Part shown: positions 836 through 5,226 of the stretch, piece after piece
Numbering within the stretch: position 1 is the first letter of the stretch
Layout of the letters: each line of letters opens with the position of its first letter
Origin: Escherichia coli
Lineage (GTDB): Bacteria > Pseudomonadota > Gammaproteobacteria > Enterobacterales > Enterobacteriaceae
Assembly: GCF_009931435.1 (NCBI RefSeq)
Contig: NZ_CP043414.1
Length of the DNA stretch: 64,000 nt
Reading direction: 5' to 3' (one strand)
Translations under genes and position numbers: made by a program
Notes under the pieces: generated by a model
Told to the model about the DNA's origin: nothing
The model's input: only the letters and a program-made list of their open reading frames with translations
Database searches by the model: none

Positions 836-1656
<821 letters not shown>

Positions 1657-1700
1657 GTTGCATACAACGGCAACAGGAAACCGCGCCCTGAGTTTCTCAA

Positions 1701-2012
<312 letters not shown>

Positions 2013-2088: not shown

Positions 2089-2265
2089 ATGGCTAAGATG
2101 GAATCAGAGATTAAATCACTTAAAGCTGATAACGCCGCATTACGAAAGAGTTTAAAACTGATTGATGAGACTAATGCGGTTATGATGGATCATGTATTCC
2201 CTGAGTGGCGAAATGAAACTAAACCTACACAATATAAGAAACCTACACTTCGAGTGGTTGCATAA
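2089..2265 (+). CDS. Hypothetical 58-aa coiled-coil protein, possibly a gene fragment truncated by the adjacent IS
   Basis: ATG at 2089 directly abuts the IS end (2086) with no Shine-Dalgarno; reads MAKMESEIKSLKADNAALRKSLKLIDETNAVMMDHVFPEWRNETKPTQYKKPTLRVVA. The listed ORF 2014-2265 begins inside the IS terminus. Confidence 0.3.
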   Translation: MAKMESEIKSLKADNAALRKSLKLIDETNAVMMDHVFPEWRNETKPTQYKKPTLRVVA

Positions 2266-2269
2266 AAAA

Positions 2270-2296
2270 AGGGACTCCGAAGAGTCCCTAGTAAGT
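2270..2296 (-). terminator. Intrinsic terminator (minus strand)
   Basis: Hairpin GGGACTC-TTCG-GAGTCCC followed by a run of seven T on the minus strand. Confidence 0.65.
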
Positions 2297-2371
2297 TTAG
2301 GTTAGGTTTGCACAACAAAGATGAGGTTATAATGAACATAATGCTACATTATTCTTTAAAGCCAGAAAAAT

Positions 2372-2392
2372 AACCGCCCCGAAGGGCGGGAG
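2372..2392 (-). terminator. Intrinsic terminator (minus strand) downstream of the small membrane-protein genes
   Basis: Minus-strand hairpin CCGCCC-TTCG-GGGCGG followed by TTATTTTTCT. Confidence 0.6.
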
Positions 2393-2547
2393 GATTAATA
2401 CTCAATCTATACTTGTTATGTTTTTATGTTGTATAGATCACTGACTATGAAAACACTGTACTGGAGTGTGTTTTATGGCTTTTAATCGGGAATCCTCAAA
2501 GAAGATCCCCTGTTAATAACCATAAGGAGAAAAGGCAGATTACACTA

Positions 2548-2721
2548 TTATTTAGCATCCTTTTTACAGCAACTAAAAAGAATAAACAGGATTAAACATC
2601 CCCAGCCGTAAGGTGTACCAATTAGAAATTTGAAAAACACCACCATCGATATAAAAATCAATTTAATGCCAGCGACGATAGTCAAAAACAGCAGAGTAGC
2701 AAAGTAGACAAAAAGATCCAT
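2548..2721 (-). CDS. Small hydrophobic protein (57 aa, about two TM segments, basic C-terminus); not in ORF track (under 60 aa)
   Basis: Manual translation MDLFVYFATLLFLTIVAGIKLIFISMVVFFKFLIGTPYGWGCLILFILFSCCKKDAK; ATG 2721-2719, TAA stop 2550-2548; co-directional with upstream genes and followed by the terminator at 2372-2392. Confidence 0.45.
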   Translation of the reverse strand: MDLFVYFATLLFLTIVAGIKLIFISMVVFFKFLIGTPYGWGCLILFILFSCCKKDAK

Positions 2722-2770
2722 AGATAATCCTCTTTGAAAACGACCATCATCTATAGTTCAATTCATCGAT

Positions 2771-2953
2771 TTAATTAATGATACTTGAAAGCGTTACACA
2801 CAGCAGAAATGCCAATATGTGCCATGAATATACGATAGTTAATCCTACAGTAAGACAAATCAAAAATTCAACCATAGGTAAATCCTCAAATAAGAAAAAG
2901 GTTAGCGGGGGGTGATTCCCCCCGTAGACGTTGACCAGCTCAACATCTTTCAT
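2771..2953 (-). CDS. Small hydrophobic protein (60 aa, about two TM segments)
   Basis: ORF-track protein MKDVELVNVYGGNHPPLTFFLFEDLPMVEFLICLTVGLTIVYSWHILAFLLCVTLSSIIN; starts 21 nt after the stop of the Nu1-like gene. Confidence 0.5.
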   Translation of the reverse strand: MKDVELVNVYGGNHPPLTFFLFEDLPMVEFLICLTVGLTIVYSWHILAFLLCVTLSSIIN

Positions 2954-2973
2954 ACATTTATTTATAACGCGTT

Positions 2974-3525
2974 TTAAGACACATCAAATTCATCGTCTTC
3001 TTCTGGTTCTTGTTCCGGTTCATCCATTAATGGTAATTCTTCTTCCTCGTCTTCTCCCAAATCAGCATTTTCGAACAAGTCCCCTACTTCATTTAAACGA
3101 AGCTCGATGATCTCCCTTAGCTTATTCTTCAATGTTTTCTGATCAGTGGCGGATTCTAAAATTTCTAGGGCATCGATTGTGGCGATCTGCAAGATAGTCT
3201 GCTTCACCTTCCCACAATATTCAGCTAGTTCCTGTTCTACATACCCGACCGGAATCAGGAGATTCATTGCTTCCTGGTTCTCTCGTTCGGCTGCATCTGC
3301 TAATGCTCTCTCACGGCGTAATTTCTCTACGTCGATTTGTTCCTTGATAGAAGTTTCTTTAAGCGGGTTAATGATGTTCTTCAAGACCCAATCACACCCA
3401 GGCTTCGCCGGGACACGTCTTGTATTTGTGTTATAAGGTAGACCCCTTTCTAACCATTTCTTAGCGGCGTTAATTGTATAGCCGTATAAGCGGGAAATTT
3501 CTGTAAGGGTTAATTCTTCTTTCAT
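2974..3525 (-). CDS. Putative DNA-binding protein resembling phage terminase small subunit Nu1 (N-terminal winged HTH, acidic C-terminal tail); orphan, no large terminase nearby
   Basis: Translation MKEELTLTEISRLYGYTINAAKKWLERGLPYNT...EKLRRERALADAAERE...DEEEELPLMDEPEQEPEEDDEFDVS has the layout of lambda gpNu1 as recalled. Start set at the second ATG (3525) because a GGAGG lies about 9 nt upstream; the listed ORF begins at 3540. Confidence 0.55.
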   Translation of the reverse strand: MKEELTLTEISRLYGYTINAAKKWLERGLPYNTNTRRVPAKPGCDWVLKNIINPLKETSIKEQIDVEKLRRERALADAAERENQEAMNLLIPVGYVEQELAEYCGKVKQTILQIATIDALEILESATDQKTLKNKLREIIELRLNEVGDLFENADLGEDEEEELPLMDEPEQEPEEDDEFDVS

Positions 3526-3886
3526 CCGGTTATCCTCCATTAAATTTGCGTAAAATTATTTATCTGATCTACGCATTCAGGAGAGCGCCTAAAACGCTTT
3601 CTAACGACATGAAAGATCTAGGCGTGGAAAGGAATTGGCGGGTGTTAATAGTCGCGTAGCGACCGCGCTGGTGGGCTGCACTGCACCTGTTTTGAAATCT
3701 CACACGCACATCAAATACCGGGGTGCCGAAAACTCCCTTTATTTCATCCGCGGAACAGTACCTTTTTAATTTGTCAAGCATTAATTTCTTAATTTAATTA
3801 CTAAATCTCACCCCAATAATTGAAAAAATATCAAAAATCAATAAAGTAAGCATCTAAAAGTCAGTCCATACCAAAAGAGGTATAAA

Positions 3887-4666
3887 ATGAAAAACATTAT
3901 CGCTGCTATCGTGCTTTCTGCTACTGCTTTCGGTGCTGATGCTGCGTCCTTTGATTGCACTAAGGCTATAACCAAATCAGAGAAGTTTATTTGTGCTAAT
4001 GAGTCAATCTCCGCACTGGATTCTAAACTTCATGAAGTATATGTTAAGGCTGTTAAGATTGATCCGTCTCTTAAACAAGAGCAACGCAACTGGAATAAAA
4101 CTGTTCGTGATACAATGATCAATATCGGGCAGATTCAGCCACTGGAGGCTGTATACAACGCTCAAATCCAAAACTTGATGAATGTATTATCTAAAGAAGA
4201 AACCGCGTCAGAGAGCGTTACAGATGATTCTGCAAAGGTTGAAGAAGAACAACCGAAACAGGAAGAAGTAAAGAAACTGAATGTTACCGCGATTTACGCA
4301 TGTACTGCAAAATTTACATGGAAAGTTATCGATGGTGAGGAAACAGAAGCTGTAAAAGATTACTTATACGGAAACAAAGATCATGATGATAAAGGCGGTA
4401 AACTTAAAATCAAACTGGTAGATGATGTTCCTGTGTATTTTGTTTACACCGACAAATATAACGTTTATAAATCACCACTCAAACCAGCTAAAGAAAATCC
4501 AAACGCAATGGAGGGTAAATCCAAACAGGATACTATTGGACGTGTTAACACTTATAACATCTGGGTAAGCAAAAAAGGTGACATGCGTCTTGAAGTTATT
4601 GAACCAAAATATGATTCTGAATATAAACACACTCAATTTGCATGTGACATGGTAGACGCAGAGTAA
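3887..4666 (+). CDS. Secreted/periplasmic protein with N-terminal DUF1311 (LprI-like lysozyme-inhibitor fold) domain and an uncharacterised C-terminal domain
   Basis: Signal peptide MKNIIAAIVLSATAFGADA; motif FDCTKAITKSEKFICANESISALDSKLHEVY typical of DUF1311; acidic linker; Shine-Dalgarno AGAGG 8 nt upstream. Confidence 0.75.
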   Translation: MKNIIAAIVLSATAFGADAASFDCTKAITKSEKFICANESISALDSKLHEVYVKAVKIDPSLKQEQRNWNKTVRDTMINIGQIQPLEAVYNAQIQNLMNVLSKEETASESVTDDSAKVEEEQPKQEEVKKLNVTAIYACTAKFTWKVIDGEETEAVKDYLYGNKDHDDKGGKLKIKLVDDVPVYFVYTDKYNVYKSPLKPAKENPNAMEGKSKQDTIGRVNTYNIWVSKKGDMRLEVIEPKYDSEYKHTQFACDMVDAE

Positions 4667-5226
4667 GAGGTGAAATGATGCAATTCAATAGCATGAAGAT
4701 TACTCAAAAATGGTGGGATGCGATGAAAGCTAACCACCAGAACGATATTAATTAAGTAACATTTTAGATATACAGCACCCAGCTAACAGATCACCTTTTA
4801 TGGATTTCATTATAACCCCTTTGATCTGGAAACTATGTTAATTAGTTGATTTCTAAGCCTTGTCCTTGTGATGGGGCTTTTTATTGCAAAATTTTTAGTT
4901 ATTTTGGGTTGACTACATTCGGGTTGCCAATTCGCCTGGCTAACTCTTGCTGAGTGATTTCTGACTGTAAAAAAGCATTTAACAGCAATACCTTAGAGGC
5001 GACGCTCAAAGGCACTTCAATAAAGTGATCGTGACTATTTAATGGCGAAGTTTACCTCCGTGTGTAATGTGCTCGAAAATAGCACTAAATCGCCGCAACG
5101 GCAGAATGCAATGCAAAATCAGGAAGGAAGATTCCAGAATTTCTTTGCGCTAATTTGCAAAACTGAATAATAACCTCAAGAAACGATCGGCATCATAGCG
5201 GCAAAAGGTCAGAAAAAGGTGGCGGG

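Follow-up and report, generated by a model that had tools for sequence, protein, structure and literature searches.

The window, by which we mean the whole stretch of 64,000 nucleotides analysed here (contig NZ_CP043414.1), is Escherichia coli chromosome and shows 100% identity to strain 2020CK-00188. This report concerns an open reading frame (ORF) of 780 nt on its plus strand (3887-4666, ATG start), which encodes a protein of 259 amino acids listed in RefSeq as 'lysozyme inhibitor LprI family protein' (WP_032184150.1). Dozens of full-length homologues put this ORF beyond chance, and its coordinates and translation were given correctly in a first inspection of the letters, which we call the sequence-only reading. 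Here, we found that the gene is a phage accessory ('moron') gene for a predicted Sec-exported, soluble periplasmic protein of two domains and that it is located at the right end of a prophage remnant of about 2.8 kb inserted in hicB. Alignments indicate that this gene, along with the opening ~22 codons of its downstream neighbour, was copied from a Krischvirus-like phage into the end of the hicB prophage that lies next to the attachment (att) site. The gene and its immediate borders are made up as follows:

3862-3886, plus strand: 5' recombination junction and ribosome-binding site AAAAGAGG, where similarity to the phages RB49 and Phi1 begins
3887-3943, plus strand: signal peptide, residues 1-19, predicted cleavage ADA/A (read from the sequence)
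3944-4189, plus strand: constant DUF1311/LprI helical domain, residues 20-101, with Cys24 and Cys36
4190-4279, plus strand: acidic disordered linker of variable length, residues 102-131 (composition and model confidence)
4280-4666, plus strand: polymorphic eight-stranded beta-barrel, residues 132-259, plus the stop codon
4675-4755, plus strand: 26-codon ORF, a truncated relic of the phage gene ORF261 with its inherited ribosome-binding site; the homologous part runs from 4675 to about 4741 (DNA alignment)

The N-terminus of the protein (MKNIIAAIVLSATAFGADA followed by ASFDC) combines a lysine at position 2 (K2) with a hydrophobic core of 12 residues and an A-x-A at -3/-1, and the residues of the signal peptide, including A17, A19 and A20, were invariant in 22 homologues. 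In the AlphaFold2 (AF2) model, residues 1-20 were unstructured and their predicted local distance difference test score (pLDDT) was below 50. The cleavage region (GADA/ASFDC) carries no lipobox of the form L-[AS]-[GA]-C. The predicted signal peptide is in keeping with the secretion that had been proposed in the sequence-only reading.

For the constant domain, the AF2 model predicted four helices (residues 24-105), and both Cys24 and Cys36 were conserved in all 22 aligned homologues. When the single sequence was compared with Pfam, PF07007 was matched weakly and in part (independent E-value 9.9e-4, 19.9 bits, residues 24-76 against positions 1-71 of the 106 in the model), and PF07007 matches are precomputed for most homologues. 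The family profile retrieved 3332 proteins at E <= 1e-3, all of them via residues ~1-130. Neighbours in the AlphaFold database (AFDB) bear the names DUF1311 or LprI-like, and the predicted helical bundle resembles solved DUF1311 structures. Since a Pfam profile match was found, the earlier assignment of the N-terminal domain to DUF1311 stands. The linker contains 10 acidic and 5 basic residues (102-131), its pLDDT drops to 28-46 (residues 105-129), and it differs between alleles by indels and repeats; both its composition and its low pLDDT agree with the acidic linker described before.

The C-terminal part of the protein was modelled as an eight-stranded beta domain (residues 132-258, pLDDT 74-91). 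Cys139 is located on the first strand and Cys253 on the last one, and both residues are invariant across the barrel-type alleles; a disulfide between them is predicted to clamp the barrel. No family of Pfam, NCBIfam or PADLOC was assigned to this barrel, and the statement in the sequence-only reading that the C-terminal domain could not be assigned was borne out by these searches. An NCBIfam match to an IS1 transposase was rejected as spurious, as it scored 19.8 bits where the cutoff is 100. For a divergent barrel allele, named type C below, PADLOC returned only a weak match to PDC-S13 (E = 0.0044). Among 1.84 billion proteins only one cluster at 50% identity covered the barrel, and a profile search of solved structures yielded zero matches at E <= 1.

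Full-length homologues fill a single syntenic slot, which lies between gene 52 (topoisomerase) and holin t, in lytic T4-like phages of the genus Krischvirus. This slot is occupied by RB49 ORF262, Phi1 ORF262, their counterparts in JSE and GEC-3S and ~50 others, and Krischvirus-like metagenomic contigs use the same slot. A promoter-like site (TTGACA-17-TAAGAT, read from the sequence) directly precedes the ORF262 gene of RB49, and the home of the gene in these lytic phages is their early accessory region. The proteins of RB49, Phi1 and JSE (EpJSE_00265), which are grouped in PHROG 14799 (function unknown; matched by the window protein at E = 3.8e-109), share 57-64% identity overall with the window protein as well as its signal peptide, its two-domain plan and its cysteine pairs. 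Their barrels, in contrast, represent other alleles (25-42% identical), and their genes lie in the lytic early region with a complete ORF261 behind them, whereas the window gene lies at a prophage end. A paper from 2006 lists an RB49 'ORF260c' with a DUF1311 match (E = 0.2), which is probably the ORF262 gene under an older numbering.

Comparison of the two halves of the protein showed how differently they have evolved. Across the Krischvirus and prophage copies the first ~125 residues were more than 95% identical (DNA identity 90-100%), and between prophage and lytic-phage copies this N-terminal half had a synonymous divergence (dS) of 0.06-0.19 and a ratio of nonsynonymous to synonymous divergence (dN/dS) of ~0.04-0.2. 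The barrel, in contrast, exists in at least three deeply divergent types, which share their cysteines at 25-42% mutual identity, and the predicted architecture of the type-C allele matches that of the other types. At least three types occur in the hicB prophage depending on the strain (window and DEC5A; EC416; E275a), and each has a Krischvirus counterpart. Within type A, dN/dS was 0.30-0.34 for the barrel and 0.04 for the N-terminal domain. Positive selection by point mutation was rejected, since the barrel appeared relaxed or patchy and its dN/dS was not above 1; its diversity is therefore better explained by an exchange of old alleles. The low dS of the N-terminal half, when set beside the old barrel lineages, likewise argues for cassette exchange and not for rapid point mutation. 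Taken together, the sequences indicate that alleles have been exchanged between lytic and temperate phages since the transfer, and the constant coding sequence of the N-terminal half and, for the majority of alleles, the conserved beginning of the following gene likely served as recombination handles.

DNA similar to the target region was present in 54 of 5426 complete E. coli genomes and was chromosomal in every case. E. coli UTME-9 (NZ_CP157110.1) has two places that match the query region and may hold two copies of the locus or prophage. The window allele itself is unique, as an identity of at least 99% was reached in only one of the 5426 genomes. Its main difference from the common type-A allele is a patch at 4343-4500 (codons ~153-205) with 78-85% DNA identity, which spans the long loop after the first strand plus the next strands and looks, from the alignment, like a small recombination patch.

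More distant T4-like phages carry other C-terminal modules on the same kind of secreted DUF1311 domain. Examples are gp108 of Klebsiella phage vB_Kpn_F48 (contig L021, 4001-4753) and P0021 on a metagenomic contig (L016, 6001-6813), whose modules, judged from their sequences, are apparently helical with a cysteine pair of their own. In Krischvirus-like contigs, an 82-amino-acid gene homologous to RB49p255 is found four to six genes 3' of the DUF1311 gene, and it gave a weak Pfam match to Tad2-like (anti-Thoeris) proteins (L014, 2863-3111; L018, 5960-6208). This match suggests that the interval between gene 52 and t is an accessory, counter-defence region.

The borders of the foreign segment became visible when the window was aligned with the lytic phages. 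On the 5' side, identity to RB49/Phi1 was ~37% upstream, 67-71% at 3862 and 95% from 3896 onward. On the 3' side, the gene is followed by a 26-codon ORF (4675-4755), which encodes MMQFNSMKITQKWWDAMKANHQNDIN and whose Shine-Dalgarno sequence AAGAGG (4665-4670) overlaps the TAA stop codon and ends 4 nt before the ATG, in full agreement with what the sequence-only reading had reported for both elements. On the nature of this ORF the sequence-only reading was wrong: it is no independent small gene but the truncated 5' end of the next gene of RB49-like phages. In RB49 this next gene, ORF261 (96 aa, PHROG 15915), starts with MQFNNMKITKDWWDAMR behind the same TAAGAGGT junction; the homologue in the Krischvirus-like contig L014 starts with MQFNNMKITKDWWDAMKANHR, and the ORF261 homologues of phages have 93-102 aa. 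The window ORF follows ORF261 for ~22 codons, then runs through 4 unrelated codons of prophage DNA to a stop, and DNA alignment placed the breakpoint near 4742. When delimited against Krischvirus, the foreign segment covers ~3862-4741. Because the ORF261 relic was carried in with the gene, we conclude that the transfer ran from a Krischvirus-like phage to the prophage.

The prophage remnant around the gene and its junctions include the following features:

836-2012, minus strand: frameshifted IS3-family element, left bound of the remnant (annotation and ORFs)
2974-3540, minus strand: terminase-small-subunit-like gene, the divergent neighbour (PHROG 57, E = 6.5e-13; hypothetical in RefSeq)
3820-3847, plus strand: sigma-70-like promoter candidate TTGAAA-16-TAAAGT (consensus scan, 9 of 12 matches)
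4855-4885, plus strand: terminator-like hairpin with U-run, end of the transcription unit (scan, 10-bp stem)
4920-5048, minus strand: hicB fragment at the junction of prophage and chromosome (RefSeq pseudogene fragment)

A second hicB fragment lies at 501-620, and hicB is thus split by the prophage. It is likewise interrupted in the loci of other strains that were inspected. In O55:H7 strain DEC5A, a complete prophage with terminase, portal, capsid and tail genes resides in hicB, and in E275a the right arm of the prophage is present up to the terminase gene; the target gene is the last one before the hicB junction in either strain. Positions 2097-5050 of the window are collinear with the DEC5A prophage (92.4% identity), and the collinearity begins only at 2097. 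To the left of this point lies the IS3 element with its three transposase ORFs on the minus strand (1701-2012, 1354-1656, 836-1366), and the deletion of the remaining prophage is probably connected with this element. At 5050 the window also lacks 444 bp that are present in DEC5A, which comprise hicA as a whole and the N-terminal portion of hicB; this loss means that the HicAB toxin-antitoxin pair is gone in the window strain, and other lysogens retain hicA beside the truncated hicB. When we searched for an att core, the sequences surrounding the two hicB fragments shared no exact direct repeat of 10-25 nt.

The divergent neighbour had been described in the sequence-only reading as part of a Nu1-like module, and its match to PHROG 57 (terminase small subunit) is consistent with this. 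Three further ORFs on the minus strand of the remnant (2548-2721, 2771-2953, 3569-3781), of which two are small and hydrophobic (57 and 60 aa) and one has 70 aa, are not annotated in RefSeq. The intergenic region 3540-3886 showed, from 3786 onward, 98-100% identity among the three hicB prophages compared. Since the sequence at 3820-3847 is conserved to this degree among the hicB prophages and is unrelated to RB49, the promoter candidate is prophage-derived; promoter-like sites in the region were no more numerous than in shuffled sequences, and the candidate is a weak one. The hairpin at 4855-4885 had a centroid energy of -10.9 kcal/mol with a z-score of only -1.6 and is kept in every prophage allele including type C. 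The 3' region of the gene gave no Rfam match at E <= 1. The gene thus shows the properties of a prophage moron: no other gene lies between it and the att junction, and it is flanked by a weak candidate promoter and terminator, lies in a foreign segment and varies by allele within its slot. It has stayed intact in the window strain despite the loss of almost all of the prophage.

As to its function, we tentatively favor the idea that the protein is a protective, immunity-type binder directed against exogenous murein hydrolases or incoming phages, a reading which appears possible but short of probable. The DUF1311 domain would engage a conserved murein hydrolase or cell-wall partner in the manner of the type VI DUF1311 immunity proteins, and the polymorphic barrel would supply a variable target specificity. 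An infected cell or a lysogen would be shielded in this way from attack on its wall from outside. The most plausible attackers would be superinfecting phages with their tail lysozymes or tail tips, and the outcome would be superinfection exclusion or resistance to lysis from without, as brought about in T4 by the unrelated protein Spackle. Secretion, a sigma-70-type site in the lytic phage and the moron position are the observations for which a protective role is considered most likely.

Several known systems provide precedents. DUF1311 proteins act as cognate immunity partners, or are predicted to do so, for type VI effectors that target the cell wall (PMC12981562; PMC12135965), and ScwA, another DUF1311 protein, modulates the lytic transglycosylase MltD. 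The type VI immunity proteins (for example Etsi4 of enterohaemorrhagic E. coli) and Salmonella ScwA resemble the window protein in that they are exported and act on periplasmic cell-wall-degrading enzymes. However, the genes for Etsi4-type immunity proteins and for ScwA are chromosomal, and the immunity genes adjoin their effector, whereas the window gene has the terminase-like gene and the hicB junction as neighbours in E. coli and T4-type early genes in phages; moreover, none of these proteins has been described with this barrel or with a cassette-like exchange of alleles. T4 Spackle (gp61.3), the proposed functional analogue, is a small secreted early periplasmic protein with a structural disulfide and has no sequence or fold relation to the window protein. 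Solved structures show Spackle as a single small helical domain, and no Spackle structure was matched when solved structures were searched with the family profile.

RB49 has a gp5 tail lysozyme and no detectable Spackle homologue (the best tblastn match, E = 0.049, lies inside gene 41), and this combination lends circumstantial support to an exclusion role. The annotated endolysin of RB49 (RB49p102; contig L011, 4719-5108) is a small peptidase-type protein and not a T4 e-type lysozyme, and the 2006 paper reports a Pfam match to D-Ala-D-Ala carboxypeptidase for it. With the endolysin being of the peptidase type, gp5 is the only RB49 protein annotated as a lysozyme.

A number of observations weigh against a protective role. 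Neither experiments nor direct computation link the protein to a hydrolase or to the exclusion of phages, and we found no functional study of it in the literature on DUF1311, on LprI in prophages and on periplasmic proteins of Krischvirus. A PADLOC search with the window protein returned no match, and ScwA, itself a DUF1311 protein, gives no protection against lysozyme (PMC7933661). The promoter and terminator calls are weak. Co-variation of the barrel with the carrier's own gp5 was rejected, as gp5 is at least 98.8% identical across the 60 Krischvirus records listed, whatever their allele. The same applies to the receptor-binding tip gp37, the identity of which does not partition by allele. 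Any phage component recognized by the barrel is therefore not the carrier's own. Finally, Klebsiella phage F48 carries its DUF1311 gene near a primase gene and ~2 kb from a gene annotated as spackle (weak match to T4 Spackle), and since this phage has both, Spackle and the DUF1311 protein are not simple alternatives.

If the idea of a protective binder is widened, T4-like and temperate coliphages might share an unrecognized polymorphic periplasmic exclusion system, in which a DUF1311 'handle' carries swappable barrel or helical modules, each neutralizing a different incoming phage or wall-degrading enzyme, and in which alleles are traded via the constant half. We regard this wider scenario as doubtful.

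Among the alternatives, the protein might act like ScwA and bind or stabilize lytic transglycosylases, amidases or endopeptidases of the host, thereby tuning wall integrity or the timing of lysis. ScwA itself is a soluble, disulfide-bearing periplasmic protein that controls MltD levels without inhibiting lysozyme, the invariant N-terminal domain would fit a conserved host target, and in Krischvirus the gene is located only ~2.3 kb from holin t. However, a conserved host target leaves the extreme diversity of the barrel alleles unexplained, and ScwA is built differently, with DUF1311 at its C-terminus and no barrel. We therefore consider such a modulator unlikely.

It is quite unlikely, too, that the protein is an orphan immunity factor against peptidoglycan-degrading toxins of bacteria (type VI effectors, bacteriocins) with barrel alleles matched to the toxins. 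The reported and predicted type VI immunity proteins of the DUF1311 family would fit this explanation, a constant-plus-variable build is typical of polymorphic toxin/immunity systems, and the gene has outlasted the decay of its prophage. But no effector gene was adjacent in any of the contexts examined, where the neighbours are phage genes, and the main home of the gene is the early region of strictly lytic phages, for which protection from competitors is of limited value.

The RefSeq name implies a third alternative, namely genuine inhibition of lysozyme as in proteins of the LprI/MliC type: the barrel would represent a strongly diverged MliC/PliC domain and block c-type (animal) or phage lysozymes. 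Mycobacterium tuberculosis LprI has the same domain order, an exported DUF1311 domain (export being predicted for our protein) followed by a small beta-barrel, and the modelled barrel has the general topology of MliC, PliC and PhiA, with eight strands and a disulfide (predicted for our protein) connecting the first and the last strand. However, M. tuberculosis LprI is a lipoprotein with a recognizable MliC domain (PF09864), and this MliC domain, not DUF1311, is reported to be sufficient for lysozyme resistance (PMC7933661). In our protein, which lacks a lipobox, PF09864 was matched neither by the full sequence nor by any of 11 barrel sequences scanned singly. A pattern that had suggested MliC homology by eye (Y-x-C ... 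FVY-D ... Y-x-W ... C) was ruled out by Pfam, phmmer and two hhalign tests: hhalign returned probabilities of 1.2% against E. coli MliC and of 2.1% against an MliC/PliC alignment (123 sequences of low diversity), and phmmer with MliC found nothing significant among 168 family proteins. The SGxxY loop, with which MliC/PliC inhibitors plug the active site of lysozyme, is not conserved in the barrel alignment, in which the invariant positions seem to belong to the core. Among the compact matches to the barrel PhiA was the best, and PhiA did not inhibit lysozyme in vitro. MliC, PliC and PhiA have no detectable sequence relation to the barrel and resemble it no better than Cap15, NHBA, TbpB, fHbp and designed barrels do. 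The resemblance to MliC/PliC is thus topological only, family membership is not supported, and we consider a true lysozyme inhibitor very unlikely. For this protein the term 'lysozyme inhibitor' is annotation only; the RefSeq name derives from the DUF1311 domain alone, and the 'lysozyme-inhibitor fold' mentioned in the sequence-only reading is an unproven label, weaker than it sounds.

Equally improbable is a ligand binder or entry blocker, i.e. a lipocalin-like barrel that binds a hydrophobic molecule, the periplasmic face of an outer membrane receptor or the Tol/Ton machinery and acts against phages or colicins. When the model was compared with AFDB by Foldseek, lipocalin-like proteins and uncharacterized small secreted barrels were matched, the matches in the PDB included barrels of fatty acid-binding proteins, lipocalins and TbpB/fHbp, and variable loops on a conserved core would suit a binding scaffold. 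However, all these PDB fold matches were weak, and none of them fell below E = 1e-3. The allele type is independent of the carrier's receptor-binding tip, and there is no lipid anchor for placement at the outer membrane.

Finally, it is extremely improbable that the 26 codons form a functional gene for a micropeptide, with translation coupled to that of the gene before it: although the ORF retains a strong Shine-Dalgarno sequence and start codon and is intact in the type-A and type-B' alleles at the hicB locus, it consists of the start of a longer phage gene plus 4 unrelated codons, is missing from the type-C alleles at this locus, has no family match and no RefSeq annotation, and its length is unremarkable, the first 9 kb being overlapped by 143 ORFs with 20 aa or more.

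What is new here is a periplasmic DUF1311 protein with an undescribed polymorphic barrel that has been exchanged between lytic and temperate phages. Its RefSeq name follows from the DUF1311 domain and stands for no demonstrated inhibition of lysozyme. Whatever the function of the protein, the locus records a clean and datable gene flow from a strictly lytic to a temperate phage, with the truncated neighbour gene as its footprint, and alleles were exchanged repeatedly after this transfer. If the protective role that we tentatively favor were true, the protein would represent a second, structurally unrelated solution to the problem that Spackle solves in T4, and one whose constant-plus-cassette build makes specificity easy to test by swapping of alleles.

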